Positions 783 through 39,077 of a stretch of 64,000 nt of DNA are shown here, piece by piece. Every line of letters begins with the position of its first letter. Positions within the stretch are counted from its first letter, which is position 1. A model generated the notes under the pieces. It did not search any database, was not told the origin of the DNA, and worked only from the letters and a program-made list of their open reading frames with translations. Source of the stretch: a virus; IMG/VR virus record IMGVR_UViG_3300045993_000562, positions 12,148 through 76,147 of that record, one strand, 5' to 3'. Position numbers and translations under genes: made by a program.

Positions 783-861
783 TGGGGGGCCAGATAGGAC
801 TCGAACCTATATTGATCCAGTTACACGGCTACCGCTTAGAAGGCGGTTGTGATACTGACCC
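783..861 (-). tRNA. Atypical tRNA-Arg(TCT)-like RNA without a canonical D-arm
   Basis: Acceptor GGGTCAG/CTGGCCC + C-CCA; anticodon arm ACCGC-CTTCTAA-GCGGT; T-arm ATAGG-TTCGAGT-CCTAT; only 7 nt between acceptor and anticodon stems. Confidence 0.75.
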
Positions 862-2195: not shown

Positions 2196-2426
2196 CTACT
2201 TACTAGCCCCATTAATCCTATTCAACACTTGTAACCTCTCATGTGGCTCATATAGAGTCCACTCAGTTATTTCATCGCTTGTTCGCAGACAGCCCTCACA
2301 TACTCCACCTCTCAACACACACCTACCTTGACAAGGAGAATCCTCCCTACCAAGTGATAATAGGTTTATAGGAGGCAGTTCCAGGTCTGGCCAGGCTATA
2401 GAATTAGCCGCATTTGCTGCTTCCAC
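2196..2426 (-). CDS. Small Cys-rich DUF1289-like protein (start uncertain)
   Basis: SPCQGRC...VCEGCLRTSDEITEW...ERLQVL pattern. Confidence 0.6.
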   Translation of the reverse strand: MEAANAANSIAWPDLELPPINLLSLGREDSPCQGRCVLRGGVCEGCLRTSDEITEWTLYEPHERLQVLNRINGASK

Positions 2427-5013
2427 AGTCTGCGCACTTCTGGCATCCTTCGCTGTAGATAATGTTACTAGATTCGCATACCTCACACTTTTGACCCTCC
2501 GCTTTCTCACCATCTTTAATAAGGGTAGATAGGAACTTCTTAATTTGGAATAGGAAAGATCCCACAAAGATATCCTCCACCTGATCCAGGGTATGAACAA
2601 TGTTCCTTATCAGAATACCATGTCTTAGACACATGCTTATAACTCTGGCTATCTTAGTGGCATTACTATCTGCCCCGCTCTTATCCATTGTTGCCTCAAT
2701 GTGTCGTTCGGGAATACCCTTACGTCTAGCTAGCTCTACTAAGTGCTCCATAGCACCAGTAGTAGTTACACTCTTTTCATGGCTATTGGTGTGCACAAAT
2801 AATGCGAAAGGTCTAGTCTGTTCCTCATTCCAGATAATCGTCAAGTACCACTTACGATCTTCTGCTTTAAGGATCTTCATAGTTGCAGGGGAGCTATCAG
2901 GCAACTTAACATCACTAAGGATTATCTCCTCATCAGTAGATTCAGCGTTAAGCTCATCTTTAGCAGCCAATACTGAGGTCATAGTTCCAGACCGGTAGGT
3001 AGTTACGCCCTTCACATAATTAGACTTATACGCATCTAAGTAGATGTCACCAAAGGATGTGAACGGATACTCATTAGGCACGTTAACCGTCTTGCTCATA
3101 GCGGAATCAATCCACTTAGCAAATCCGGTCAGGTCATTGACGTGGTCGTTTACTGACATACTAACAGTGGTAGCTGCCCAGTCTGCCGTAGGATCCCACT
3201 CACCAATACGCTTCATGAATCGGACTCCGTAGTCCTCACACAGAACCTCTTTAGTTAATCCGCGGTTCTTGTCTATCTTATAAACAATCCCATTAGGGTC
3301 AATACCACGGAGGATTTCCTCATCACCCTCTTTTGCAAGTTTGAACATCTCTGTCTCAAACCACTCCCCCTCAAACCACCTAGGGGTTACTTTAGATATG
3401 TGATCTGGCATAGCGTTAACTATAACAGTGCGGATATACTCATGCATGAAAACCGGCTCTAAACCTCCGGACACTACGTTTGCAAATATGGAAGTGTTTC
3501 CAGTAGGCTGTATAGACAGTAGAGAGCTGTTGCGGATACCAGTCTTTCCCATTCTATCCAATACTGATTGAGGTAGTCCTAGACTCTTAACAAAAGCCCC
3601 GGCTACGTGTTTCTCAGGTTGACATAATGGGAACATGCCTTTTTCTTCTGCAAGGGTTACGGAATACGTGTAGGAGGTTTGGGCTATAGTCCTCATAAGG
3701 TCTTCACGAATAGTGTTTGCTTTTTCAGACCCCAGTCTCGTCTTGAGCATATACAATGCTGAGCCCCACCCAAGAATACCAACCCCAATGCGTCTTTTGT
3801 TGCGCATGGAGAACTCGTACTCAGGTAATGGAGCCTTAGATAAATCACTTACGTTATCTAAGAATCTTACCAGGTATTCAGTGTACATCTTTACTTTTTC
3901 CAGATCAAAACCAGTTCTTGTGTTGTTCAAGAAGTGTACAAGGTTTAGTGAACCCAAGTTACATACGTTGCCTGGGGACAATGTTTGCTCTCCGCAAGGA
4001 TTCGTAGCAAATATGGTTTCTAGGTAATTCAAAGGGCCATAGTAATTAGCACGGTCAAGGAACAATATACCAGGTTCCGCCCTATTGTAGGTGGACTCCA
4101 TGATCAGGTTCCACAACCACTTTACAGAAACCGTGTTATGGATAACCACAGGATATCCTTTAGATTTCCACAGGCCTATATCCCCGTTCCACTCTTGTTT
4201 ATACTTTTCAAAAGTAGTTTCAGGGAACATTAAGTCCCACTTATCTAATTCCTGGATTTCTGCTGCACTATCGTTTACGCTAGATTCAAGTTCAGAAATA
4301 CGTACCACTCTATCCATGAACTCATCCGTACAATTAACGGAGATATTAAACTTAGACAGGCGGCCGGGTTGCTGTTTAGCAGTAATGAATTCTACAAGGT
4401 CAGGGTGCCAGCAGTCTAAAACTCCCATCATTGCGCCTTTACGGATCTTACCCTTAGCTCTTTTATTTGAAGATTTCTTACCAGACCCAGAGGTGATGAT
4501 ATCGGAAGCCCTATCAAACAGCTCCATGTACTTAACTGCCCCGGGGGACTCAACTCCAATACCATGAATGAAGGATCCTCTAGGACGTATGTAGCTAAAG
4601 TTCTCCCCCCAGCCACCCTCTGATTTAAGGGTGTTAGCCTGATCATTCAGAGTCTTCATTATGTTGTTAAGGGAGTCAATATCGTGTGAGGCCCTTGGAG
4701 CAACATAACAATTCATAAGAGTAGTAGACTTCCACTCAGTTCCCGCGTTAGCATAAATGCGTCCGCCAGAAGTGGCTTTGAATCCACTAAGTAGGTCGTA
4801 GAACTTATCCGTCCACTCCCTCTGTAAATCTGATGTTTTTTCCATTGATGCGACGGCGGTGGCTACTCGCAACATCGTATCATTTACATCTTTATCGTTG
4901 TGGTCTTTATAAGTAGAGGCCCAGATTTCTTCTGAGAATCCGTCTTCAAAAACTGTTTGTGAAGTTGATTGTACTGCCTGAGTTGTATCTCGTTGTTCTA
5001 TTATCATTTCCAT
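2404..5013 (-). CDS. nrdJ: Ribonucleotide reductase, class II (adenosylcobalamin-dependent)
   Basis: SGGRI, MNCYV, TNPCGEQ, QPTGNTS, KGVTTYR motifs; C-terminal CxxC...CxxCGxSKC tail; no adjacent beta subunit. Confidence 0.88.
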   Translation of the reverse strand: MEMIIEQRDTTQAVQSTSQTVFEDGFSEEIWASTYKDHNDKDVNDTMLRVATAVASMEKTSDLQREWTDKFYDLLSGFKATSGGRIYANAGTEWKSTTLMNCYVAPRASHDIDSLNNIMKTLNDQANTLKSEGGWGENFSYIRPRGSFIHGIGVESPGAVKYMELFDRASDIITSGSGKKSSNKRAKGKIRKGAMMGVLDCWHPDLVEFITAKQQPGRLSKFNISVNCTDEFMDRVVRISELESSVNDSAAEIQELDKWDLMFPETTFEKYKQEWNGDIGLWKSKGYPVVIHNTVSVKWLWNLIMESTYNRAEPGILFLDRANYYGPLNYLETIFATNPCGEQTLSPGNVCNLGSLNLVHFLNNTRTGFDLEKVKMYTEYLVRFLDNVSDLSKAPLPEYEFSMRNKRRIGVGILGWGSALYMLKTRLGSEKANTIREDLMRTIAQTSYTYSVTLAEEKGMFPLCQPEKHVAGAFVKSLGLPQSVLDRMGKTGIRNSSLLSIQPTGNTSIFANVVSGGLEPVFMHEYIRTVIVNAMPDHISKVTPRWFEGEWFETEMFKLAKEGDEEILRGIDPNGIVYKIDKNRGLTKEVLCEDYGVRFMKRIGEWDPTADWAATTVSMSVNDHVNDLTGFAKWIDSAMSKTVNVPNEYPFTSFGDIYLDAYKSNYVKGVTTYRSGTMTSVLAAKDELNAESTDEEIILSDVKLPDSSPATMKILKAEDRKWYLTIIWNEEQTRPFALFVHTNSHEKSVTTTGAMEHLVELARRKGIPERHIEATMDKSGADSNATKIARVISMCLRHGILIRNIVHTLDQVEDIFVGSFLFQIKKFLSTLIKDGEKAEGQKCEVCESSNIIYSEGCQKCADCGSSKCG

Positions 5014-6332: not shown

Positions 6333-8813
6333 TTACAAACGTGGATCCAGACCTTTTTCCTTACCCAGCTCAGCAATCATCTTAACCATGAGTTCGGTTC
6401 TACGTTCACCTTTGTCGCTCAGCAAAGCCAAGGTCAATTCGTGCTCCTTGATAGAAGTACGCATTTTACCATTAGTTTTTTTCTGTTCGCAAAGCTTATC
6501 GTAACGTAGCCAAAAATCATAACCGTAGACAATTGTGAGGTAGGATTTGTTCCGAACCTTCATGTACGGTGCAACTTCCGGCTTGTAGTAACGAGGCTTA
6601 ACTACGATGCCCTCCATACCTTCGGCTGTAGTCTTCTTATTGAAGAACTCCTGAGCTTCCAGCAAACCTACTGCAGTGTTTACAACGATAAACTCATCGT
6701 CAGAGACCTTGCTGTAAGCCTCATCTGCACTCATGGTTGTAACCTGCTCCACCCCATCAATACTAAGTATTGAGAATGGTTTAGCGTGAGGCTCCCCAAC
6801 TTCCCCATACAACGCCAACTGTTGAAAGAAGACATTGAGGAACTCTTGACGTTCATCCAGTTTCAACTCTTTATGCAACGTGAGTTTAGCTAGCTCTTCA
6901 TCATGATCCAAATCAGTCAGCTCATTGAGAACCAGATCACCGTAAGCCTGAAAGTCTCTATTAATGAGACCAGCACCCAGTAGAGACCAAGGCATCAGCT
7001 CACAGTCTAGGATCAACTCGCTTTTCCAGAAGTCTAGTTTAACGAATTTATCGAAGGCGTCACTGATCAGCTTCTGAATACCATCCTGGTGAACTACATA
7101 CCCATTACGAGACACAGCGAAAGACTTCTCAGGAGTATCACGATACAGATAGAGTTGGCCACGAGAGCCCATGTACTTAGGCTCAATGACAACCTCCTCA
7201 ACACCGTAGTCCTTGAAGTACTTCAATGCCTCTTCTAGGGACTCGATGTCATCCTTGGTAGAACGAGCCGGAGCCATTGTACCAGACACGTACTGCACTC
7301 GTGAGTTTTCCAACCTGCGCAGAGTCTTCAAGTCGTCATCCGACAAGTCATACTGTTTCAAACTGAACTCTTGTTCCACTTTGATCGGAGTTACTGCATC
7401 GGTACGAAGAGCCTTTTCCTCGTACTCAAACAGTTTTTCACAATCAACTTGAATCAAACGGTCTTGTTCAGCCATGATCACCATTGCCGATAACTTACCT
7501 CCGTAGACGGCACCAGTATCCAGCATATACTTGTTCTTATAGTTGATCCGCTGAGAACAATGAGCTACATGGCCCATTATGTGCATAGGGTGGTTACCCT
7601 TAGCTTCAGTGAATAAGAACTCATAATGAGGGCGGGCATCATCAGCCATAAACCTACGCAAGTTACGTTGTTCACGTTGGGCGAAGTCTGACACCTTGCC
7701 GATGAACTCGTTCTTGCATGGTGCGTGAGTTACGTACACGGTTGGAGCGTTGATACGAGTTAGCTTCAAGTAAGGTACGGAACGTGCCCATATCTCTACC
7801 ACCTTATCAGCGTACTCTTGGTTTTCCGGCTTGAGCAAGAATCCTAATGAACTGAAGGATTTAGCTTCTAAGTCCAAGTTGGGATCAATCTCACCGAGGA
7901 TACGTTTCACAACGTAGTTCTCATGATTGGCACGCACTACTATGGCACCCCTGGCGTTTACCAGAGTCCACACCGTGTCAACTATCTCCTTAGTGAAACC
8001 ACCTTTGTCCAAGTAGTCACCGATCAGTACTATACGCACATTGTCATGAGTATAGGTTGAGTCTACAATCCGTAACATATCCATCAGAGCGGTGTTATGT
8101 TCGTGGACGTCACCTACTATCACAAACGTATCATCACCCTCCAGAGTGTAGTTAGGTAACATGGCCAACCCGTTAGAATCAACGGTTACAACAAAGCCGC
8201 CTTCCACGTTAGGACTCTGATTGATACGATGACGCATACGATATACAGCGTCGTAGTCTTTAGAACGGGTAGATGGCATCACCTCAGTCTTGAATCGTTT
8301 TGCTTGAGCTGCAATAACAACACGATACTTGTGCTCACGGCCTTCCGGTATAGCGTCATAAAACTCAGAATGAGGCAGGTCAAACAGGACTAGTTGCACA
8401 TGGTAACATGCATCCTTGGCAATCCTAGATACTTCATTGCGGAACCAAGGATCCAATCCCGTCGTGTCCACAATGACGTATGGAGTATTGACGGGGAAAG
8501 AGGTGAAGGCCTTTAACTCTGCGAACAGAAGTTGGAAAGCTTGCTCAGACAGTTCCTGCATCTCAGTAGTACAATAACTAGGGGTTTCCTTACCGGTAAG
8601 CACACTGCGGTAAGCATCACTAGTAAGAACAGAGACTGGACGCAGGCCTACCTTAATCTCATTAAACAGCTTCAGATATCCCTTCTCCAACTCAGCCGCC
8701 AAGTTCCAAGCGAATGTAGTCTTACCACAACGAGAAGGTCCAGCCAGAATGAACACCGTGTTTAATGGCGCTGAGATCTGAACTTGACTCTTTTTCAAAG
8801 CAACGGCGGTCAT
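6333..8813 (-). CDS. pnkp: Polynucleotide kinase-phosphatase-ligase (bacterial-type Pnkp)
   Basis: P-loop GPSRCGKTT; metallophosphoesterase GDVH/GDYLDKG/NHE; ligase EPKYMGSR, EGIVVKP, KVR; C-terminal DPRL. Confidence 0.92.
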   Translation of the reverse strand: MTAVALKKSQVQISAPLNTVFILAGPSRCGKTTFAWNLAAELEKGYLKLFNEIKVGLRPVSVLTSDAYRSVLTGKETPSYCTTEMQELSEQAFQLLFAELKAFTSFPVNTPYVIVDTTGLDPWFRNEVSRIAKDACYHVQLVLFDLPHSEFYDAIPEGREHKYRVVIAAQAKRFKTEVMPSTRSKDYDAVYRMRHRINQSPNVEGGFVVTVDSNGLAMLPNYTLEGDDTFVIVGDVHEHNTALMDMLRIVDSTYTHDNVRIVLIGDYLDKGGFTKEIVDTVWTLVNARGAIVVRANHENYVVKRILGEIDPNLDLEAKSFSSLGFLLKPENQEYADKVVEIWARSVPYLKLTRINAPTVYVTHAPCKNEFIGKVSDFAQREQRNLRRFMADDARPHYEFLFTEAKGNHPMHIMGHVAHCSQRINYKNKYMLDTGAVYGGKLSAMVIMAEQDRLIQVDCEKLFEYEEKALRTDAVTPIKVEQEFSLKQYDLSDDDLKTLRRLENSRVQYVSGTMAPARSTKDDIESLEEALKYFKDYGVEEVVIEPKYMGSRGQLYLYRDTPEKSFAVSRNGYVVHQDGIQKLISDAFDKFVKLDFWKSELILDCELMPWSLLGAGLINRDFQAYGDLVLNELTDLDHDEELAKLTLHKELKLDERQEFLNVFFQQLALYGEVGEPHAKPFSILSIDGVEQVTTMSADEAYSKVSDDEFIVVNTAVGLLEAQEFFNKKTTAEGMEGIVVKPRYYKPEVAPYMKVRNKSYLTIVYGYDFWLRYDKLCEQKKTNGKMRTSIKEHELTLALLSDKGERRTELMVKMIAELGKEKGLDPRL

Positions 8814-10090
8814 GCTATTACCTCCTTTTTCTTAAAATGTAACAGGATAGAGGAATGGATACCGTCTACGCTGTCACCAATTCCACGTAGGTCATCTGGG
8901 AGGATGCCATGCTGAGTCAGTACCTCACTAAACTTACTAGTACCGAGTTCCCACTTATGGTCGCTGTGACGAGAGCCTTCTTCTGAGATGTCATAGTTGA
9001 CGTTGAAGTCCTTATTAGGAACGGTGATTACAATCTGGTTGTAGTCGGTTTTCAACAGGGCTCGAAGTAACGACATGGCTTGATCCAATTCCATGTGCTC
9101 AATCACTTCAGTGAGTAAGATATCCGCCCCTTCTAGCATATAAGCAGCCGTATCAACATATCCTGCATTGATCTCCTCACAGGTAACTACAACGTTTTCC
9201 AGCCCCCAACCTTTAGCTTTTCCAGTGCTGTCTTCTGCCACCACTGGATCAGCATCAAATGCATCTACCATGCCATACTTTTTAGCTAGGCGTTTGGAGA
9301 AGAACAACTCTCCACATCCAACGTCTACTAAACGCTCTCCACCTTTTAGTATCTCGGCCACTGCATCAAAGCGGTGTCTGCGAGTGTCACCATAATTCAT
9401 CACAGTGCCGGCTAGTTGCATACTTTCACGATACGTGTTGAACGTATGCTTATCCGAGAACACGGTGCGGTTGAACAGGTAACGGATGAAGTACGGTGCA
9501 TTGACACGGTTCAGCGCACGAATGTAGAACTCGATTGCAGAAGCGTTCATGTCAATGTAACACTCTTTATCGTACATAGCCTGAATGAGACAGAATACAA
9601 CCATCACGTTCAGAATAGTCTGTACCGAGTTACCCTCGATATGTATGGTGTACATTTGTCCGGATAGAATCCCCATCTCGATTTTAGCCATGTTCACGAA
9701 GTGACGAGCACAAGCTGAAGCAATCTTAGGGTTTGAAACCTTGATTACTGTCTCAACGTAGCTAGTGAATTCCGGTGTATCAAACTCACTCTCTTTCTTG
9801 AGAGCTGAGGCTAATGCAGTAGTCACCATGCCTATTGGGAGATATGGGCTGCTGTACCTGGTTTTATCAAGGTATTCCCATTCGCTAAAACTTACAAAAG
9901 AGACTTCAGTGTCTGAATCCTTAAATAGGAGTTTGAACTCTGAATCATCTGCTTTATTAAACCAACCATATAGTTTTCCTTTACGAAGATCTCTTGTAAA
10001 AGGCTCCAGCGAGGTGCGGATGGTTGCTGGATTTTTGGACAAAATAAAAGACAACTTGGGGTTATTAGACCCTACTTTCAATATAGACAT
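8810..10090 (-). CDS. hen1: Hen1 RNA 2'-O-methyltransferase
   Basis: N-terminal LSFILSKNP and YLDKTRY ligase-activating domain; DVGCGE, EVIEH, TVPNKDFN, RHSDHKWE; ATGA overlap with pnkp. Confidence 0.88.
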   Translation of the reverse strand: MSILKVGSNNPKLSFILSKNPATIRTSLEPFTRDLRKGKLYGWFNKADDSEFKLLFKDSDTEVSFVSFSEWEYLDKTRYSSPYLPIGMVTTALASALKKESEFDTPEFTSYVETVIKVSNPKIASACARHFVNMAKIEMGILSGQMYTIHIEGNSVQTILNVMVVFCLIQAMYDKECYIDMNASAIEFYIRALNRVNAPYFIRYLFNRTVFSDKHTFNTYRESMQLAGTVMNYGDTRRHRFDAVAEILKGGERLVDVGCGELFFSKRLAKKYGMVDAFDADPVVAEDSTGKAKGWGLENVVVTCEEINAGYVDTAAYMLEGADILLTEVIEHMELDQAMSLLRALLKTDYNQIVITVPNKDFNVNYDISEEGSRHSDHKWELGTSKFSEVLTQHGILPDDLRGIGDSVDGIHSSILLHFKKKEVIA

Positions 10091-10109
10091 TGAAGTCTCC
10101 CTACGTTCG

Positions 10110-10589
10110 TTAAACTACTATGGTCACTTTGTGTTTCGCAGCTAACATCCTCATTGTGGCAAGGTCGGCCTCCCTATCTTTAGCAACTTTCTTAACCTTA
10201 GCTTTTGCTGCAGCTATTCTGCGTTTCTCAGCAGTCTGCTCCTTCCTCTCCTTTTGAACCATGCGAGTTCTGTATTCATCATCAGACTCTAAAGTAAACA
10301 CTTGAATGTTTGCGAAACCCTCGTATTCATAGAACTCCTCTACCACGTATTTCACTGAGGTGGGGTTAGGGTACTCTGACGTACTAATATCACTAGTCAA
10401 CTGATTCCACACGTCAGCTACGATAGCCCGAATCATATCTACGTAGGATTCAATTAACTCCCCGATAGGGTTATCGTTAGTGTCTAAATACAGATTAGGA
10501 GACTCTCCTATCTGTAGTACCGGTTCTGGAACACTAAAGTTAATAGTCTCCATACCTCTAAGTACGTATCTTCTGTCATCCATCATCAT
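10110..10589 (-). CDS. Hypothetical protein
   Basis: 159 aa, AGGAG RBS, promoter motif at 10621. Confidence 0.65.
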   Translation of the reverse strand: MMMDDRRYVLRGMETINFSVPEPVLQIGESPNLYLDTNDNPIGELIESYVDMIRAIVADVWNQLTSDISTSEYPNPTSVKYVVEEFYEYEGFANIQVFTLESDDEYRTRMVQKERKEQTAEKRRIAAAKAKVKKVAKDREADLATMRMLAAKHKVTIVV

Positions 10590-10633
10590 TCTCCTAAGTT
10601 AATAAAAGGTCCTACTATTTCTTATACCAATAA

Positions 10634-10831
10634 TCAGACCTCACATTGACGGATGATAACATCCACTATCTTCTCTATTTCTAACATACGAACTCTATCT
10701 AAAGAGGCCGGGTTCTCCTCACTGGACAGACCTGCTCTACTCAACTCGTCACAGAACTCTACATTGTTAGATAGGCCTTCATATTCTAAAAACAGGCTAC
10801 GCAATTCTTCAAACGGTTTCGAGGCCATCAA
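10634..10831 (-). CDS. Hypothetical protein
   Basis: 65 aa, AGGAG RBS. Confidence 0.5.
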   Translation of the reverse strand: MMASKPFEELRSLFLEYEGLSNNVEFCDELSRAGLSSEENPASLDRVRMLEIEKIVDVIIRQCEV

Positions 10832-11465
10832 TAATCTCCTGAATCTCTAGGTTACATTGTTCGATTAACTCCTCTGCTGAGGCCGAAGTGTCTTCATCTA
10901 ATCCTCTTTCAATAAGGTCCGAGATAGACCTTTGCAAGGAAGAGAGTTTGTTTGTACACGATTTGAGCGTAGGTAACAATGCTGACATGGAAGCATTGTC
11001 TACTAATCGTAGTATATCCCCCTCTAGCTCCTCTATCAAACCCTTCTCTATTACAACTATCTCAGAGTTTGGCCGTATATTGGCTGTACGCCTAGTGCTA
11101 CTTATCATCTCTATCCTTATAGAGAGACCCTCCCTACCTCTGAAGGTTTGGGTAGTGGGCACCCCACCAGGGGCCAGATACCTCATATCGGACATCCTGC
11201 CATCATCCCTATAGTCAAGGTTAAACACTTGCCCACTGAGACATGCGGGCCCCTCGAAGAACTTATCAGTAATGCTCTTAATAGAACACTCTAGGGTATT
11301 ACTCTTCGTAGTAAAAGGCTTCTGTTCTTTATTTACGTAAGGCTGATTGAAACTCTGCTGCATCAGCGCCCTGTTGTATAAATCCCTAGTCATTGCCCCT
11401 TCAAAAGGCGAGTTTGGAACCGCCTGGGCTCCAATCCCCCTACTAGTGGTTGCGGTTATAGCCAT
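10809..11465 (-). CDS. Hypothetical protein
   Basis: 218 aa, GGAG RBS. Confidence 0.6.
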   Translation of the reverse strand: MAITATTSRGIGAQAVPNSPFEGAMTRDLYNRALMQQSFNQPYVNKEQKPFTTKSNTLECSIKSITDKFFEGPACLSGQVFNLDYRDDGRMSDMRYLAPGGVPTTQTFRGREGLSIRIEMISSTRRTANIRPNSEIVVIEKGLIEELEGDILRLVDNASMSALLPTLKSCTNKLSSLQRSISDLIERGLDEDTSASAEELIEQCNLEIQEIIDGLETV

Positions 11466-11508: not shown

Positions 11509-13104
11509 TTATTGTTTTGTTAAGATGATTGCTTCAATCTCTGCTTGGGTTACACCTCTATGTACTACTTCGGCGTTACCCCAAGAGGTTCCTATCTCAG
11601 CTTCAACTCCGATTGGAATATCTAACCATGGGAAAAACTCCATAGGCCAATCGTTCATGTATTTGAATCCAGCCTCTACTGCTGCTGCTGCATTGTGGAG
11701 AGGAACCTCCCATTCACAGCTGTCGAAAACAGTGCATATTGCCTTACCTCCTAATGGCTTCATTCCACTGTTATTCAATTCAGCGAATGCCACCAAACCT
11801 AGCGTGGATGTGGGACTTTGAATGTATGCGTTTTGGGAATTTCTCAAGGCTGCGTTATAGGCTGCAGTCTTTCGAAAGCAATCTAGAGTCCCATACTCTT
11901 GCCTCCTTTGACCGAATGGTGTAACTATTCTCTGATTAAGTTTAGCCTGCATATGTACAGTCTCAATAAAGGTCTTTACCTTTGGAAACTTATCAAAGTA
12001 TAGGTTTATCAGCCCCTTAGCCTCATCCTCTGAAATGTTCAGGCCTACTGCAATACCTTTGGCACTAGATCCATAGACTATACCGAATCCAACAGCCTTA
12101 GCACCCTGCCTTAGTTGTTTATACCTAGAGTTTTCCTTGGCCGTCTTATCTTTTAGTACAGCCTTAAACTCATCATATGGCACACCCAACATTGATGAGG
12201 CCGTAAAGGTATGGAAGTCGAAACCTTTAAAACAGGCCTCTTTCATGGCATCATCTCCAGATAAACATGCTAGAATTTTCATTTCAGCACTGGAGAAATC
12301 GAACAATATCATTACGTTACCTGGCTCTACATCGTAACAATCACGGATGTTGTACCCGTGTTTAGGTCTAGGTATCTGAGTAAGGTTGGGTTCCCCACCA
12401 GTTATCCTAAAAGAACTGGTACCATGTAAGAAGTAGCCGGGGTGCAGTCTAGAATCATGTTTTACGAAGTCGTCAATGTAGTTCGTAATGAACATGTTTT
12501 TTGAGGAGTTGATATCTTTTAACTTCGCTAGCCATGCTAGATATTGATGATCTGGGTTCTTGGGTATGTAATTACCAGGCTCTTTAGGGTCTATGCCTGC
12601 TAGAAGTAGGAGGGCGTCCCCATCGGTACTAGGTTCACCGGAGGTTGTTGTATATGGGGCTATAAAGTTCTTCTCGCCGTATAAGAACTTCTGCATTTCT
12701 ATCCCAGAAGAGTAGTTTATCTCTCTACCTATCATTTTGAAAACCCCATCCTCTAGTATGGCAATTTCTTCAGCCATACTAGTATTGATTCTACGGTTCT
12801 CAGCCTTGTTGTAGTGTAATCCATTGATCTCTAAATCTAAAATGTAATCCAGAGTTTTCAACGTCACATCTTCATTAACATCAATAAGGGCTGGCATGTT
12901 GACCTTGTTAAAGGTATCCCCACTTACACTCTCAATGAACTCAGGCCTCTCTATCAACCTAGGAAACACTTTAGAAAGCAACCTGCTGGTCGCTATACAA
13001 TCTAGCCCAGCATAGAGGTTCAGCTTATCGTATTCGAAATCCTCATACGTCCTATAGACTGGTTTGGTTTCAGCTTTCGCTTCCCCCGTTTGAATCACTG
13101 CCAT
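11509..13104 (-). CDS. Family A DNA polymerase, polymerase subunit (carries the ExoIII motif)
   Basis: YAGLD (ExoIII), PNLTQIP, motif A DFSSAEMK, motif B RQGAKAVGFGIVYG, motif C TVFDS; AAGGAG RBS before ATG 13104. Confidence 0.9.
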   Translation of the reverse strand: MAVIQTGEAKAETKPVYRTYEDFEYDKLNLYAGLDCIATSRLLSKVFPRLIERPEFIESVSGDTFNKVNMPALIDVNEDVTLKTLDYILDLEINGLHYNKAENRRINTSMAEEIAILEDGVFKMIGREINYSSGIEMQKFLYGEKNFIAPYTTTSGEPSTDGDALLLLAGIDPKEPGNYIPKNPDHQYLAWLAKLKDINSSKNMFITNYIDDFVKHDSRLHPGYFLHGTSSFRITGGEPNLTQIPRPKHGYNIRDCYDVEPGNVMILFDFSSAEMKILACLSGDDAMKEACFKGFDFHTFTASSMLGVPYDEFKAVLKDKTAKENSRYKQLRQGAKAVGFGIVYGSSAKGIAVGLNISEDEAKGLINLYFDKFPKVKTFIETVHMQAKLNQRIVTPFGQRRQEYGTLDCFRKTAAYNAALRNSQNAYIQSPTSTLGLVAFAELNNSGMKPLGGKAICTVFDSCEWEVPLHNAAAAVEAGFKYMNDWPMEFFPWLDIPIGVEAEIGTSWGNAEVVHRGVTQAEIEAIILTKQ

Positions 13105-14410
13105 CTTCACTTTCTCCTTCTTCGTTTTCATCCTCACCCTCAGTTGTTCCAGGGGCAGTACTTCTACCTTTGGTCAACTTTGGTAATAGATTTTCATATC
13201 CGCCAATACTTAGTTCGGGGGCGAAATCCCAAATTGCAGTTTTAAGAGAGAACGTCCCTTGGGCACCGCTATCCAAATCATGCAAAAGAAGCATGGTATC
13301 GAACTTTACCCCTTGTAGTCTTATACCCGTAGTATGGAAAATCATTAAAATATCAAACTTGATATTATGACCAACCTTATACATAAGAGGATCTAAAAGA
13401 ACTGGTGCCAATAAAGCCCAAGCTTCATCAGGGTCATAGTAGGTGTTACCACTATGCCATAATGGAATTACCACTGCTTTATAGATAGGCTCACCATTCT
13501 TGTCGCAGCTAGTACCGTCCCTCCAACCGAATTGAATAGTCAGAAGCTTAGCGTCTATAGCCATAGGATCCAAACCATTCGTCTCCGTGTCAATCGAGGT
13601 TATAGATCCAGTACCGCTGAAACTGGCCAACTTCGCAACAGCTTCACGAACGTCTTCAATGCTTTGACATATTGAGATATTCCGAACCTGAGCCTGTACG
13701 CCTTCCTCCAACGTCAGTAACTTCAAATCGCCACGTGCAAGCCTGGCTGCCTTCTCGAAGTCTCTACGAATTACCTCGAAGTAGTCATAGCTCCACATAG
13801 CCCCAGATGCGTTCTGACGAATCATTGTCAGTGCTTTAGGATGTAGTGTGATAACTACTTGACTACCCAATGCATTAGTAATCTCTCCTCGGTTACCGGT
13901 ATTAGAATGCTTCAACAATCCTAAGGCCTTAGTTACAGCCGTAGTTAGGCTGATGATCACTTTAGGTTTAGTGCGTTCAATCTCACCTAAAAGATAAGGC
14001 CTACACTTCATCAACGTTCTCTGTGATGGAGACTTTCCTTTAGGGAAGTTCTTTAAGTCATTAGGACACTTAAGCAAACTTACTACTTGATACGTTAATT
14101 GTCCAAACCCAGCCTTATCGGCTAACGTCTGAATGATACCTTTGTTAATTATCTCTCTTTGATCGTCTCTATAGTCGTACTTACCTCTGAGTTCAGGATG
14201 GTCCTGGATTATCAGAATGTCAACCGGCTTATTCAAAAGGGAAACCTTGGAGGGATTCTTACATGGGAGAATACATACCTTCTCACAGTAAGTCTTAGAT
14301 AAAGAAGAGAAGTCTTCCTTAGCTAATATTGCAATCTCCACCGATGGCGTCATCTTAGGTTTAGCGTACAACTCGTCTAGAGGCAAATCTTTCGTTGTTA
14401 ATCTTGCCAT
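13070..14410 (-). CDS. DNA polymerase N-terminal subunit: UDG-like domain + 3'-5' exonuclease (ExoI, ExoII)
   Basis: KC...CRPYLLGEIERTKPKVII...TLHP (family-4 UDG fold); IDTETNG, GHNIKFD, DTMLL; GGAG RBS before ATG 14410. Confidence 0.8.
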   Translation of the reverse strand: MARLTTKDLPLDELYAKPKMTPSVEIAILAKEDFSSLSKTYCEKVCILPCKNPSKVSLLNKPVDILIIQDHPELRGKYDYRDDQREIINKGIIQTLADKAGFGQLTYQVVSLLKCPNDLKNFPKGKSPSQRTLMKCRPYLLGEIERTKPKVIISLTTAVTKALGLLKHSNTGNRGEITNALGSQVVITLHPKALTMIRQNASGAMWSYDYFEVIRRDFEKAARLARGDLKLLTLEEGVQAQVRNISICQSIEDVREAVAKLASFSGTGSITSIDTETNGLDPMAIDAKLLTIQFGWRDGTSCDKNGEPIYKAVVIPLWHSGNTYYDPDEAWALLAPVLLDPLMYKVGHNIKFDILMIFHTTGIRLQGVKFDTMLLLHDLDSGAQGTFSLKTAIWDFAPELSIGGYENLLPKLTKGRSTAPGTTEGEDENEEGESEDGSDSNGGSES

Positions 14411-14626
14411 TATTAGACTCCATTTAATTAAAAAGAGGGTACCCAAATCGCCATGACTTGGATACCCCGAGGCTCTCATTGCTCTAGGAGGAGATTTTGA
14501 GCCAGTTGCTTTTTCCGGAAATCCAGATCTGCAACATGAAGACATTTGCCGTTGGGAGAAACAGCATCCTTCTTCACACTATACTTATACCACAAAACCA
14601 CTACTTTGTTTAACCAAAATAAGGCT

Positions 14627-19135: not shown

Positions 19136-19210
19136 TGGTCGGTTAGGTAAGACTCGAACTTACATGCTCCTGGCCCCAAACCAGGCGACTCACCTTTAGC
19201 CTACTAACCG
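19136..19210 (-). tRNA. tRNA-Pro(TGG)
   Basis: Cloverleaf, CCTGG-TTTGGGG-CCAGG, encoded CCA. Confidence 0.92.
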
Positions 19211-19380
19211 AAATACCCTGATCTAATGCTAATCTGTAACTTTACCCAGAACAACATCACTTCAATTCTTCTGACTTCAATTAGCTCCCCTGGAGTTTTA
19301 GAGGCCATACTACATCTATAACAGCATACAGCTGGTAGTATGAAGAATGCTGCGCTTCTTTTAAAGAATGTTAGTTCCAT
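19204..19380 (-). CDS. Possible 58-aa protein between tRNAs
   Basis: GGAG RBS; MELTFFKRSAAFFILPAV...; stop overlaps the tRNA-Pro 5' end. Confidence 0.35.
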   Translation of the reverse strand: MELTFFKRSAAFFILPAVCCYRCSMASKTPGELIEVRRIEVMLFWVKLQISIRSGYFG

Positions 19381-19395
19381 ACATACTCCGTTGAT

Positions 19396-19470
19396 TGGCG
19401 CCCAATGTCTGATTCAAACAGACGACCTACCGCTTACAAGGCGGTTGCTCTATCACTGAGCTAATCGGGC
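19396..19470 (-). tRNA. tRNA-Thr(TGT)
   Basis: ACCGC-CTTGTAA-GCGGT, encoded CCA. Confidence 0.92.
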
Positions 19471-19475
19471 AAAAC

Positions 19476-19561
19476 TGGTGGGTAGGCCAGGACTCGAACC
19501 TAGATAGCCGGAGGCGACAGATTTACAGTCTGCTGATTTAACCATATTTACCATCCTACCC
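19476..19561 (-). tRNA. tRNA-Tyr(GTA)
   Basis: GCAGA-CTGTAAA-TCTGT, long variable arm, CCA. Confidence 0.92.
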
Positions 19562-19568
19562 TCAATTT

Positions 19569-19644
19569 TGGCTCCCCGACGTGGACTCGAACCACGGACC
19601 TAAGCATTAACAGTGCTTTGCTCTACCGACTGAGCTATCGAGGA
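19569..19644 (-). tRNA. tRNA-Asn(GTT)
   Basis: AAGCA-CTGTTAA-TGCTT, CCA. Confidence 0.94.
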
Positions 19645-24225: not shown

Positions 24226-24310
24226 TGGTGCCCGGAAGAGAATTCGAATCTCCACACCTCACGGCGACCCGCCCTAAACGGGTTGCGTCTACCAGTTCCG
24301 CCATCCGGGC
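24226..24310 (-). tRNA. tRNA-Leu(TAG)
   Basis: TGGCGGAACTGGTAGACGC D-arm, ACCCG-TTTAGGG-CGGGT, CCA. Confidence 0.93.
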
Positions 24311-28037: not shown

Positions 28038-29729
28038 TTACGCTTGTATTCCATCGTACTCCTCCATCAATCGTCCACGGATTTGAGCCAACGTCTGTTC
28101 TTTAACCAGTACGCCGTCCTTGAAGACTACCTCCAAGCAACCTTGAGCTTCTTGCTCCCAAGTCTGTTGGTCGTACAGAACGTACTTACCGTCCTCACGT
28201 TCAACACGGAGTAAACCCTTGGCGGATTTCTTCATGCCGTCATCAGTCTTTGGATCTTTGAACAACTCACGGAACTCACCATCAACAATAGCCGCTGTGG
28301 CTTTAACTGCCATTCCATAAGAGTCTCTCGTAACAAATTGGTACGAAAAGCTACCGACGCCATACACGGAATTACCACTAGAGAAGCCTTTTCCAGCCAA
28401 TATAGCACAAATTTCTTCTGCACGACTGACGGTTATAGAGTCACCGTAGATAAGTCCTACACGTTCATGTAGTTGCTTGAATCCCTTATCGGTAATAGTG
28501 CCCCCAAATATACCCCATAAACATTCGACTGCACCTACAGCTTCAGGTACAGAGATTTGACGACCGTACGTCATTACTAGGCTGTCGTCCTCATAGTCAC
28601 CAAGGGCTGAGGCCGTATGGTATATACCTCTATTCTTCACGGCTTCATAGCAGTTCTCCCAGAACTTAACTACGTTGGAATATACTTCAAGACTACCATC
28701 TATTGAAGTATTCCACACTTTATGACCACATAGTATCTTTACAGGATCACCACTATCTGGGCGGAATACTACCTTTGCCATACCAAGTGCATTCACTGGG
28801 CGGTTCAGAATCACTTCCTTAAGCTCATGGGCCGTGATGGTGATGACCTTCCAGAAGTCCCAAGTATCCGACACTACCGAGACAATACCTGATGGGGTAA
28901 CTTCTGTAATCAGGCGACGAATGGTTTCTACTTCATTCTCGTTCCCACCAGCGCAGATTACACTATGCTCGCTGGCCGGAACACTACCTCCTACCATCTC
29001 TTTTTCCGCATCGGCACCATAGAAATTCTCGGCGTAGTCAATAGCCGCTATGGTATCTGTACCGAAGAAAGAAATTAGGTGACCTAATCCGGATTGAGAA
29101 GCATCATGTAAACCAGAAAGCCCACGCTCACTAAAGTCGTGAGCTTGCCACTTGACGAAGTCGGGATGAACACCGGTCAACTCTGCATACTTGCGCAGAA
29201 TCTTGTAGTACTCAAATGCAGTAGTAGCACTAGTGATAGTCTTCCAAGTTTCGCAAGACAGGGACGTCTCTAGATAATTAGTCAACCAGAAGAAATCAGG
29301 ATGCGTATTCTTGATAGTGTAGACAGGAACCCGCATAGGAACCAAACTACCTTCAGGCAATGCCTTTATCTCAATAGGCATATATCCTAGATCGTGTAGG
29401 GCTTCAAATCTGGCCATAGAGACCGAGTCGGGACCTAGTGCCGCATCCATACGACGTTTGTACTTTGCGACTACCTCATCCTTTGGTTGACTGAAGAACT
29501 CTTGATTCCAGCAGTCTATGAGGAACCATTTGATAAAACCTTGTAGTCCTGCAAAGACCACCGTCTCTGGGCATCCGTCATCAGATCTAATGTGCTCCGA
29601 ACGACTAGCCGAACGCGGTGTCATATTTGAGTAGATCATTTCAGTACCTTTGGGGTACATTTCCGCATGTGAGACTTTGTAGAAATCACATGCTGTCAGG
29701 GGGTTTATTGGGAAATACGATTTTGACAT
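28038..29729 (-). CDS. Nicotinamide phosphoribosyltransferase-family protein (likely Namat)
   Basis: DFYKVSH, HDFSERG, ASEHS, SVVSDTWD, RPDSG, KKSAKG. Confidence 0.88.
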   Translation of the reverse strand: MSKSYFPINPLTACDFYKVSHAEMYPKGTEMIYSNMTPRSASRSEHIRSDDGCPETVVFAGLQGFIKWFLIDCWNQEFFSQPKDEVVAKYKRRMDAALGPDSVSMARFEALHDLGYMPIEIKALPEGSLVPMRVPVYTIKNTHPDFFWLTNYLETSLSCETWKTITSATTAFEYYKILRKYAELTGVHPDFVKWQAHDFSERGLSGLHDASQSGLGHLISFFGTDTIAAIDYAENFYGADAEKEMVGGSVPASEHSVICAGGNENEVETIRRLITEVTPSGIVSVVSDTWDFWKVITITAHELKEVILNRPVNALGMAKVVFRPDSGDPVKILCGHKVWNTSIDGSLEVYSNVVKFWENCYEAVKNRGIYHTASALGDYEDDSLVMTYGRQISVPEAVGAVECLWGIFGGTITDKGFKQLHERVGLIYGDSITVSRAEEICAILAGKGFSSGNSVYGVGSFSYQFVTRDSYGMAVKATAAIVDGEFRELFKDPKTDDGMKKSAKGLLRVEREDGKYVLYDQQTWEQEAQGCLEVVFKDGVLVKEQTLAQIRGRLMEEYDGIQA

Positions 29730-35396: not shown

Positions 35397-35511
35397 GTTT
35401 AACCCTTTTAACTAAAAGAAGATGTTAGTCAGCCACGATGTTCTGTGGCCGCCTCAGCCTGGCTTATGGATTTCCAGCGTCCGCCCAATAGTCGCAACAC
35501 AACTGGATTCG

Positions 35512-35739
35512 TTAACAATAAGGTTCGTCGCCTTCCTCGTCAGGTTTCGTCGGCGTGAAGAATGACAATTTTACCAGAAAGACTAGAGCAGAGATGACCA
35601 GAACTGACACTACTACGGCTAGAACTATATGTCTAGTGCTGAGATCCCAAGTAGCCATCCATACAGCTACTATGAAAGCTACTAGTAGTCCTAGTAATAC
35701 TCTGGCTCCTTCTTGGGTACTTTCATAAATCGGTTCCAT
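35512..35739 (-). CDS. Small 2-TM membrane protein
   Basis: 75 aa, AGGAG RBS. Confidence 0.6.
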   Translation of the reverse strand: MEPIYESTQEGARVLLGLLVAFIVAVWMATWDLSTRHIVLAVVVSVLVISALVFLVKLSFFTPTKPDEEGDEPYC

Positions 35740-35757
35740 ATATTTCTCCTAAATTTA

Positions 35758-36084
35758 GAGTGACGAAGGTGTGCTATTACGCCAAAAAGCTCTAAGGGTC
35801 TCTACCGGCATCCCCCACTATTACTCTGCTGCTACCCTATAGTGAAGTTAAGTATTTATGCAAATGTTCCGCTCGGTTGCTAGATCCACCGACCAAACCG
35901 GTAAAACTGTATAGATGCTAACTTTGTCCGCTTGCGCTGGCGAGTTAGTACCATATCCTTCCCCCGCAGTTATACGATGGTATATCAGCCGTGATATTAT
36001 CCCCCGTCGAGGTATCTTACCCCATACGATCTGCTTGCTACTCATTAAAGATGGCTGCCTCTAAGCCAACTACCTACGCCACTC
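35758..36084 (-). ncRNA. Candidate RNA mimicking 23S rRNA helices 43-44 (uL11-binding domain) with large insertion
   Basis: 5' GTTGGCTTAGAGGCAGCCATCTTTAATGAG and 3' GCGTAATAGCACAC; closing stem GAGTGGCGTAGG/CCTTCGTCACTC. Confidence 0.75.
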
Positions 36085-36129
36085 ACGTAAATACCTTGGA
36101 GTACTTACGTGAGTAGTGTGTTATTAAAA

Positions 36130-36430
36130 ATCAAATGGGCCGGGATCATTATCACCCAGCCCACTCTATTCTAGCTCTGGTTAGAAACCGCTAGACAGGT
36201 TCCGCTTAGGCTTGTGCAGCCCATGCTCCTTGCGAGTCGTTTGCAGGTATTTTACTTTTGCCATTTACGTCGGTCAACTGACGATTCCATCGAATGTTAG
36301 TAATACTAGATCGAGTCTGTATCTGGCCCATTAAGAAGACCCCTTGGTAAGAGTCTTTTTGGTGGACCGGCCGGGGTACTGCCCCCCGGGTCTCCAATAT
36401 CTTTCGCATTCAATGCTTTACAGGTTACCC
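36130..36430 (-). ncRNA. ssrA: Circularly permuted (two-piece) tmRNA, tag (A)ANDSQGAWAAQA
   Basis: Acceptor piece ends CCGGTCC-A-CCA at 36360; 30-nt intervening hairpin; coding piece starts GGGCCAG at 36329 (G3-U70); resume codon GCA at 36244, stop at 36206. Confidence 0.9.
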
Positions 36431-36551
36431 TGTGAATTCTTCTTAAATAGAGGGCCTATTCTACCTCTACGTAGTTGTAAGTCCAGCTTGTATTTTAACA
36501 CAAGGGCGGAATCGAATCTATGTGTATAAGACTTATTTTGTAACACTGAGT

Positions 36552-38439: not shown

Positions 38440-38458
38440 TGTTTATACCTCTGAAGTG

Positions 38459-38540
38459 TGCCGGGGACAGGATTCGAACCTGCATGCCAAAAGGCGACGA
38501 GGCTTAAACTCGTTGCGTCTACCAGTTCCGCCACCCCGGC
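38459..38540 (-). tRNA. tRNA-Leu(TAA), no encoded CCA
   Basis: Leu-type D-arm, ACGAG-TTTAAGC-CTCGT. Confidence 0.9.
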
Positions 38541-39002: not shown

Positions 39003-39077
39003 TGGTGTCCTCGACGGGAATTGAACCCATACCTAGCCCTTAGGAGGGGCTTGTTGTATCCATTCAACTACAAGGAC
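39003..39077 (-). tRNA. tRNA-Arg(CCT)
   Basis: AGCCC-CTCCTAA-GGGCT, CCA. Confidence 0.93.

Follow-up and report, generated by a model that had tools for sequence, protein, structure and literature searches.

The minus strand of a 64,000-nucleotide stretch of viral DNA (positions 12,148 to 76,147 of the IMG/VR record IMGVR_UViG_3300045993_000562; the whole stretch is referred to as the window) carries, downstream of a tmRNA gene, an RNA element at 36081-35757 (36084-35758 when the outermost base pairs are included) that mimics a domain of bacterial 23S rRNA. At its two ends it reproduces, as a self-closed unit, the top of helix H42, H43 and H44, the ribosomal GTPase-associated centre (GAC), with a lineage-variable domain incorporated in H44. 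The RNA is a member of a large phage family maintained through selection for structure and appears to represent an undescribed class of phage RNA, in which the window element is distinguished by its long insert and its tmRNA neighbour. The locus is interpreted, with about as much confidence as doubt, as encoding a stable non-coding RNA of ~325 nt that acts in trans, would be bound by host uL11 and would imitate the GAC off the ribosome.

Copy of the GTPase-associated centre

The resemblance of the element to the 23S GAC is far beyond chance. The rrlH gene of Escherichia coli (NC_000913), where the GAC comprises nt 1051-1108, served as reference sequence, and the H43-H44 sequence given in the original prediction agrees with it. 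By hand count, the 5' block (36076-36042) is identical to nt 1054-1089 at 30/36 positions and the 3' block to nt 1091-1104 at 13/14, with both halves following in rRNA order as had been proposed. A 21-mer (36070-36050) and a 14-mer in the 3' block (35782-35769) each show one mismatch to E. coli, with 0.00 and 0.02 matches, respectively, expected in shuffles of the window. The two GAC motifs and their closing stem are thus present on the minus strand where they had been placed. The likeness to rRNA is confined to ~58 nt and the flanks of this part pair together, with 36080-36072 and 35762-35770 forming eight standard pairs and one U-U, and four outer pairs (36084-36081 with 35761-35758) raising the closing stem to 12/13. 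In the 5' strand of H44, where an insertion had been predicted, an insert of ~250 nt separates the equivalents of U1090 and G1091. The parts of the RNA are as follows, with R1 denoting the covariance model of the phage family described below:

35757..36081, minus strand: whole GAC-mimic RNA, ~325 nt (R1 cmsearch match, model positions 1-169 of 169)
36072..36080, minus strand: 5' strand of the closing stem (H42-tip equivalent), pairing with 35762-35770
36049..36071, minus strand: H43 equivalent (nt 1058-1080), with A1067 of its loop at 36062 (sequence against E. coli)
36040..36048, minus strand: three-way-junction strand and lower 5' strand of H44 (nt 1081-1090; sequence and R1 match)
35783..36039, minus strand: inserted variable domain, ~250 nt (alignments A2 and A3)
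35771..35782, minus strand: top of the H44 hairpin and its 3' strand (nt 1091-1102; sequence against E. coli)
35762..35770, minus strand: 3' strand of the closing stem (pairing and family covariation)

All positions of the tertiary core are kept in the window, including U1060 (U36069) and A1088 (A36042). Both A1067 and A1095 are likewise retained, the latter at 35778 within the H44 hexaloop (35780-35775). G36059 replaces A1070, the junction strand is one base shorter than that of E. coli (A1088 = 36042; U1090 = 36040), and A35772 replaces U1101 and is able to pair with U1090. The signatures of the phage family are also found in the window, namely the insert at 36040/36039, a U-rich linker ending in G (35788-35783) and A1101 (35772).

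A search of the whole window against Rfam 15 at gathering thresholds places nothing on the element, and at E up to 10 the region 35400-36500 returns only tmRNA models and three chance matches (E ~5). At this cut-off no large subunit (LSU) rRNA (RF02541), intron, ribosomal protein (r-protein) leader, GOLLD or ROOL match falls on the element, and four relatives likewise lack a match to GOLLD, ROOL or other curated large non-coding RNAs in Rfam. The comparison with LSU rRNA, GOLLD, ROOL and other RNAs that had been suggested for this element therefore returns no described family that matches it. A bacterial LSU rRNA gene was rejected on the lack of an LSU match and on the flanks, which consist of the tmRNA and an open reading frame (ORF), whereas a true rRNA scores 2235 bits. 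A group I or II intron or an rRNA intervening sequence was discarded as no intron model matches and the rRNA-like flanks, of 35 and 14 nt, are mutually paired. Similarly, the element is not the 3' domain of the tmRNA, as the tmRNA models stop at 36212 and 36236 and ARAGORN calls a tmRNA in only three loci of the family, nor an r-protein leader, as there is no Rfam leader match and the downstream ORF encodes a hydrophobic product of 75 amino acids (aa) without a PHROG match. That the element is a free-standing mimic rather than an rRNA gene, as had been proposed, is supported by the absence of an LSU match in Rfam, the non-rRNA flanks and a closing stem of its own which covaries. The score of 2235 bits derives from Paenibacillus phage Pd_22F (L255, MZ092003.1 82765-85217), which carries an unannotated true 23S rRNA that ends at the edge of the fetched stretch, and which was on this account rejected as a minimal member of the family. 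This 23S rRNA is either host DNA or a transduced or misassembled segment, and its detection at such a score shows how rRNA contamination would look.

The phage RNA family and its carriers

A scan of IMG/VR with the exact 18-mer of H43 distinguished 48 stretches, 46 of which have the same layout. A 17-mer from the 3' block occurs in at least 118 stretches of the same database, with an H43-like motif upstream in 104/118 among the matches listed. When these two independent motif scans are combined, at least 119 distinct elements with inserts of between 48 and 368 nt are obtained, and more than 150 copies of the family were fetched in total. The layout shared by these elements comprises, from 5' to 3', a closing stem of free sequence, the H43 core, a junction ending in GAGU, the variable insert, a U-rich linker, the H44 hexaloop hairpin followed by ACAC, and the complement of the closing stem. 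In an alignment of thirty sequences, for which the structure was written by hand, 91.4 % of the cells are paired and the covariation score is 0.561, against 0.135 in 500 shuffles, none of which reached the observed value, and ≤0.17 when the partners are slid by one to three columns. Changes on both sides are observed in all seven pairs of the closing stem (7/7), in all five of the insert base helix (5/5) and in two pairs at the base of H43. The covariance model R1 (169 positions) matches the window element over its full length at 60.2 bits (E 5.8e-15), the single match in the window and in the 76-kb record, while other family members score between 50 and 124 bits and the true E. coli GAC 55.6 bits. 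The description of the element as domesticated, in the sense of selected, in the original prediction is upheld by this large and covarying family, in which the core positions of both motifs are conserved at 97-100 %. A full-text literature search returned no description of the family, and Rfam 15 does not include such a family.

A search of 185,579 species genomes with the 3' motif identified 74 stretches, of which ~29 are full members, mostly on contigs of metagenome-assembled genomes and in a few Clostridia isolates. The other ~45/74 were rejected as members, and their number fits the chance 17-mer matches which, by our own arithmetic, are expected in 596 Gb. Four contigs contain two R1 matches each (L120:8148-8537, L201:3995-5391, L068:3763-4943 and L175:818-4061), which lie ~60 nt apart in L120; R1 can split one long element into two partial matches.

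For the comparison of the family with the ribosomal domain, the conservation of each half was read from the set of sequences selected on the other half, in E. coli numbering. The positions conserved at 97-100 % are G1059, U1060, U1066, G1071, C1072, A1077, C1079, A1084, A1085, G1087-U1090, G1091-U1094 and A1098-A1101, with G1087, A1088, G1089 and U1090 present in 79-80 of the 80 sequences. U1090 (80/80) and A1101 (38/38) are read as a compensated pair relative to E. coli, which has A1090 and U1101, and A1101 and the UUUG linker constitute family signatures not found in rRNA. Other positions are relaxed, including A1067 (64 A, 9 G, 3 C and 1 U; ~82 % A), A1070 (67 A and 11 G), A1095 (31 A, 5 G and 2 C; ~82 % A) and 1096 (29 A and 9 G), and position 1097 may be U, C or A. 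In the ribosome the U1060-A1088 pair is a uL11 contact, and A1067 and A1095 are linked to thiostrepton (PMC2175356). The GAC is an autonomous folding unit whose tertiary fold is required for uL11 binding, and A1070 and A1095 are invariant in rRNA without making tertiary contacts, with A1095 contacting cofactors (PMC6239185). As the fold and uL11 positions are kept and the factor positions relaxed, the family retains what the fold and uL11 need and relaxes what is needed by the translating ribosome alone. The original prediction had suggested titration of uL11 or of the stalk, a decoy for toxins or the recruitment of factors as possible functions; the pattern favours recognition of the fold and of uL11, and weakens the case for any function that would depend on A1067 or A1095. 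The H42-like stem is short and of arbitrary sequence, so that the uL10 site is probably not copied, and the pattern argues against recruitment of the stalk through uL10.

In the window insert, 36039-36034 and 35796-35788 form a base helix that encloses a 3-nt AGA bulge, and 35904-35898 and 35808-35802 form a long-range helix. The insert has sequence blocks in common with those of the jumbo phages BF, Kaldavass, XbC2, GAP32 and CBB (mean column identity of 71 % in alignment A2), and a reading of the alignments suggests that both helices are kept through two-sided changes between the window and these phages. There is no universal insert motif, with the best 7-mer occurring in 9/82 inserts. Among 50,697 phage records, a BLAST search with the locus detected nothing beyond a 77-nt match in Erwinia phage Kaldavass, the insert matched none of the fetched loci, a search with the upstream 160-aa ORF gave no relatives, and a metagenome scan for closer relatives returned only contig L013. 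The structure of the insert is thus drawn from the comparison with the jumbo phages. RNAalifold, when applied to the subfamily, recovered the core only or mis-paired it.

Five long members of 390-440 nt carry, within inserts of 310-360 nt, a hairpin with the consensus of the sarcin-ricin loop (SRL) of 23S rRNA, defined here as a bulged-G motif, a C-G pair and a GNRA loop. These members are:

L150:5602-6021
L086:3678-4067
L076:7729-8119
L256:2359-2746
L258:8363-8802

In L150 the hairpin is identical to E. coli 23S nt 2654-2665 at 12/12 bases. The motif occurs three times in the 82 inserts, against 0.125 expected (L086, L150 and, with one change, L076). By our own reading, all five members differ from one another in the stem sequence of the hairpin, behind which lies a UUAA motif, while the GAC core, the insertion point and the type of base helix are as in the window. 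A single molecule of this subfamily, as read from its sequence, copies both rRNA elements of the factor-binding site. A scan of the window insert for the SRL motif was negative, and the window element was rejected as a composite of GAC and SRL, as the aligned stretch (alignment A6) is not SRL-like and forms an unrelated 5-bp hairpin in the computed folds.

Among the matches listed, a tRNA gene lies within 50 nt of 43/119 elements and within 1 kb of 66/119, in all 66 cases on the same strand. Where the fetched DNA contains tRNA genes, around two-thirds of the copies are located within tRNA arrays, without exception on the strand of the tRNAs; a search for homologues near phage tRNA clusters had been suggested with the original prediction. 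In the complete 163-kb phage contig L041 (IMGVR_UViG_3300044739_000018), which has direct terminal repeats and encodes more than twenty tRNAs, the element starts at 11105, ~5 nt past a one-piece tmRNA (89 bits) whose match ends at 11100, and the same region (10015-11317) contains a class A RNase P RNA (120 bits). The tmRNA neighbourhood of the window thus recurs with a different tmRNA type. Adjacency to a tmRNA is nevertheless not a rule of the family, though it recurs this once. No ORF family is common to more than four of the 82 loci (3 kb around non-redundant elements). Among 50 carrier records, of which nineteen are at least 90 % complete by CheckV estimate, with four complete cultured phages in addition, neither uL11 (0/50) nor uL10 (0/50) was found in a search in which the positive controls worked, and any protein partner must therefore be that of the host. 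A bL12 protein scores above the cut-off in 2/50 of these records, without a link to the RNA.

The family is widespread, and includes elements in cultured phages of Pseudomonas, Serratia, Erwinia, Cronobacter, Pectobacterium, Xanthomonas and Aeromonas, as well as in contigs binned to many other bacterial phyla. The cultured carriers are:

Pseudomonas phage pf16: R1 97 bits, between tRNA-Asn and tRNA-Pro
Aeromonas phage 4_4572: R1 86 bits, before tRNA-Met
Xanthomonas phage XacN1: R1 84 bits, after a 2'-5' RNA ligase gene
Serratia phage BF, Erwinia phage Kaldavass and Xanthomonas phage XbC2: R1 83-87 bits, in a gap of ~290 nt between annotated genes
Cronobacter phage GAP32 and Pectobacterium phage CBB: R1 81-82 bits

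An RNA feature is annotated at the element in none of six cultured records (pf16, 4_4572, XacN1, BF, Kaldavass and XbC2). The annotation of Kaldavass places a 30-aa 'hypothetical protein' across the 5' core of the RNA (L171:1531-1623), probably as a misreading of the non-coding gene. The window phage itself is a distant relative of the Caulobacter phiCbK-type phages, with 55 % identity in a 671-aa hallmark protein, a relationship that fits the alphaproteobacterial type of its tmRNA, and its DNA occurs in wetland and pond metagenomes, three of which are possible sources of it, whereas no RNA-seq run was listed as containing it. No R1 match was found in phiCbK or Karma, its nearest cultured relatives.

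The RNA locus and its surroundings

The features that surround the RNA in the window are the following:

36458..36485, minus strand: sigma-70-like promoter candidate 5' of the tmRNA gene (TGGACT-16-TAGAAT, 9/12 consensus)
36206..36433, minus strand: circularly permuted, two-piece tmRNA gene of alphaproteobacterial type (Rfam tmRNA_permuted 73 bits, alpha_tmRNA 62.8 bits)
36125..36160, minus strand: G+C-rich hairpin with an 8-bp stem, then a U-rich tail (read from the sequence)
36081..36114, minus strand: 14-bp hairpin immediately 5' of the mimic (minimum free energy (MFE) fold and sequence)
35512..35750, minus strand: ribosome-binding site (RBS) AGGAG (35750-35746) and 75-aa ORF (35739-35512) with two hydrophobic stretches (from the sequence)
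19136-19644, 24226-24310, 38458-38540, 39003-39077 and 786-861, minus strand: tRNA genes

The promoter candidate is a consensus match alone, of a kind no more numerous in the window than in shuffles, and is the sole promoter-like site on the minus strand upstream of the tmRNA. A second such site (36277-36249) falls within the tmRNA gene, and the scan found none between the tmRNA and the mimic. The permuted tmRNA was detected by Rfam and not called by ARAGORN; its tag frame (36244-36206) encodes ANDSQGAWAAQA, followed by a stop. The model matches end short of the mimic, at 36212 (tmRNA_permuted) and 36236 (alpha_tmRNA). The original prediction had placed the mimic directly downstream of the tmRNA: the tmRNA is indeed upstream on the same strand, but 130 nt lie between the end of the tmRNA match and the mimic, and contain the last part of the tag frame, a hairpin resembling a terminator and the 14-bp hairpin. 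From its sequence, the first of these hairpins (36125..36160) would be either the 3' helix or terminator of the coding piece of the tmRNA, or a leaky terminator before the mimic; the terminator scan did not flag it, its loop probably being above the size limit of that scan. The 14-bp hairpin, a possible processing site, ends in four bases which can alternatively lengthen the closing stem of the mimic, and the two pairings are mutually exclusive. The 75-aa ORF, for which a PHROG search gave no match, begins 18 nt past the end of the mimic and is not counted as belonging to the RNA, though it probably lies on the same transcript.

Eight tRNA genes are encoded in the window, all on the minus strand (Pro, Thr, Tyr, Asn, two Leu, Arg and one detected by Rfam only). 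A tRNA-Leu and a tRNA-Arg lie 2.4-3 kb upstream of the mimic on the same strand, and the mimic is placed outside the main tRNA cluster. Elsewhere on the minus strand, an 826-aa ORF (6333-8813) has polynucleotide kinase, phosphatase and RNA ligase PHROG matches and is a candidate RNA (tRNA) repair enzyme, which would fit a phage that defends the translation apparatus. The DNA polymerase is distributed over two overlapping ORFs (11509-13137 and 13070-14545), which match successive parts of PHROG 17 and could reflect a split gene, a frameshift or an intervening element. Auxiliary metabolism genes include those for a nicotinamide phosphoribosyltransferase (28038-29729; 648 bits) and the large subunit of ribonucleotide reductase (2404-5013).

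Possible functions and comparison with known systems

In the proposed mechanism, the RNA would be transcribed with, or just behind, the phage tmRNA and then cut out, as would its relatives in tRNA arrays. It would take up the compact tertiary fold of the 58-nt GAC and be bound by the C-terminal domain of host uL11, giving a particle that would mimic the stalk base outside the ribosome and compete with ribosomes for something that recognises the GAC. The most likely target would be a GAC-directed stress or defence factor of the host, and phage translation would thereby be kept running. Where the aim of the imitation is concerned, a decoy for GAC-directed factors is ranked first, followed by a uL11 sponge, a toxin decoy and a platform for GTPases. 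More broadly, and tentatively, phages may use free-standing copies of rRNA centres (GAC, or GAC with SRL) loaded with host uL11 as a general counter-measure. These would serve as replicas of the factor-binding site and neutralise an as yet unrecognised class of host defences or stress sensors which read or attack it, such as GAC- or SRL-directed toxins, RelA-type alarmone synthetases and ribosome-dependent GTPases.

Several observations weigh against a GAC imitation bound by uL11. The thermodynamic fold does not single out the GAC topology (z-score -1.39), and the fold constrained to the GAC lies 22 kcal/mol above the MFE. Ribosomal uL11 is abundant, and a sponge or decoy would need the abundance of a tRNA. 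The insert, which makes up 78 % of the molecule, would not be accounted for, and the SRL hairpin of the subfamily points to ligands that see both rRNA sites, such as translation GTPases and toxins, rather than to uL11 by itself. Furthermore, the hairpin at 36160-36125 could end the tmRNA transcript, and the mimic would then be left without a recognisable promoter.

Among the alternatives, the RNA could act purely as a sponge for free or exchanging uL11, so that ribosomes made or repaired during infection would go without this protein, RelA would not be activated and the stringent response, which would otherwise close down translation capacity, would be blunted. RelA requires uL11 for its activation. 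When tRNA is bound with RelA, it is contacted by the thiostrepton loop and the SRL (PMC5829649). Such a sponge would be consistent with the retention of the uL11-contact and fold nucleotides next to relaxed A1067 and A1095, with the lack of a phage uL11 in the 50 carrier records and with the position of the RNA among highly expressed stable-RNA genes. It is nonetheless considered unlikely, in that free uL11 is far outnumbered by ribosome-bound uL11 and infections are short, and in that neither the SRL hairpin of the subfamily nor the large variable insert would be explained. Ranked behind it, and doubtful on its own grounds, is a decoy or competitive inhibitor for host toxins which attack the GAC and, in some relatives, the SRL, in parallel to phage tRNA arrays directed against tRNA-cleaving defences. 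A GAC-directed bacterial toxin exists in Tre23, which ADP-ribosylates H44 at nt 1095-1098 (PMC8661411), the SRL hairpin of the subfamily represents another classic toxin target, and the RNA adjoins tRNAs and a tmRNA in a phage that encodes the kinase/phosphatase/RNA ligase-like repair protein. Tre23 is, however, a type VI secretion effector, anti-phage systems directed at the GAC are not known, the target positions 1095-1097 are the most variable of the H44 loop in the family, and a sacrificial substrate would be weak against a catalytic toxin. A platform on which the RNA, with or without uL11, traps, buffers or recruits translation GTPases or tRNA complexes off the ribosome (candidates are EF-G, EF-Tu complexes, IF2, RF3 and HflX-like proteins) is given a low probability. 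Going by the title of the 1997 paper of Munishkin and Wool, EF-G reportedly binds oligoribonucleotides that mimic the thiostrepton domain and the SRL. Both A1067 and A1095 are kept in the window, and the subfamily unites the GAC with an SRL hairpin whose stem sequence is different in all five members. Set against this, A1067 and A1095 are each replaced in ~18 % of the family, the window has no SRL hairpin, and the lack of a uL10 site and of phage uL10 in the 50 carriers means that the bL12 stalk could not be recruited.

A role in cis, as a uL11-responsive leader of the 75-aa ORF or as a processing or stability module of the tmRNA transcript, would account for the RBS and ORF directly 3' of the mimic, for the several relatives which likewise have an RBS and ATG at once behind them, and for the 14-bp hairpin that competes for four bases of the closing stem. 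This role is very improbable, since most relatives lie between tRNA genes without an ORF behind them, no downstream gene family is conserved and the RBS is not sequestered by structure. Least credible of all, and close to dismissed, is a non-functional origin as a captured rRNA fragment, a remnant of an intron or intervening sequence, or host contamination. The high identity to 23S rRNA, and the 55.6 bits at which R1 also scores the E. coli GAC, would be expected of such a fragment. Only ~58 nt are rRNA-like, however, and the closing stem differs in every relative yet pairs, the family signatures A1101 and the UUUG linker are not found in rRNA, and no LSU or intron model of Rfam matches at E up to 10, in comparison to 2235 bits for Pd_22F. 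Furthermore, hundreds of copies occur in unrelated phages, and an assembly artefact is excluded by the presence of the element in complete cultured phage genomes.

The interpretation as a trans-acting, uL11-bound imitation of the GAC would, if true, mean that bacterial viruses copy a piece of ribosomal RNA and deploy it as a separate molecule, for which no described precedent is known to us. A new layer of the conflict between phage and host over translation could come to light, and a natural, stable RNA module that binds uL11 or translation factors could be gained. With cultured carriers available, and with uL11 and the 58-nt GAC being a classic and well-controlled biochemical system, the interpretation is open to direct testing.

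The nearest likeness is to the bacterial 23S GAC itself, the minimal RNA which binds uL11 and thiostrepton, with which the phage RNA shares the same helices in the same order, the 1067 and 1095 loops, the tertiary core and the U1060-A1088 pair. Unlike this domain, the phage RNA is free-standing, with a short closing stem of its own and an insert of ~250 nt with a UUUG linker; the window element differs from the E. coli GAC in its U1090-A1101 pair, the G at 1070 and one junction base fewer, and A1067, A1070 and A1095 are not invariant in the phage family. Large structured RNAs that are common in phages, often beside tRNAs, include GOLLD and ROOL, which are of unknown function. The phage RNA differs from them in that it matches neither of their Rfam models at E up to 10, and neither has been described with a copy of an rRNA domain. 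The L10 leader (Rfam RF00557) imitates the L10 site which adjoins the GAC, and r-protein leaders serve in autoregulation. The phage RNA resembles these leaders as an extra-ribosomal RNA that imitates an rRNA protein site and is expected to bind a free r-protein. The leaders are, however, cis-acting 5' untranslated regions of cellular r-protein operons with a loose likeness to rRNA, whereas the phage RNA is near-identical to rRNA, is mostly situated among tRNA genes, away from any r-protein gene, and, unlike the leaders, most likely acts in trans. With phage tRNA arrays and tmRNA it shares genomic niche and strand, and is presumably co-made and co-processed with them. The tRNAs and tmRNA act on the ribosome as substrates. 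As a 58-nt rRNA domain cannot replace its ribosomal counterpart, the mimic must act by imitation. If phages do employ such copies as a counter-measure, these RNAs would form the rRNA counterpart of the phage tRNA arrays.

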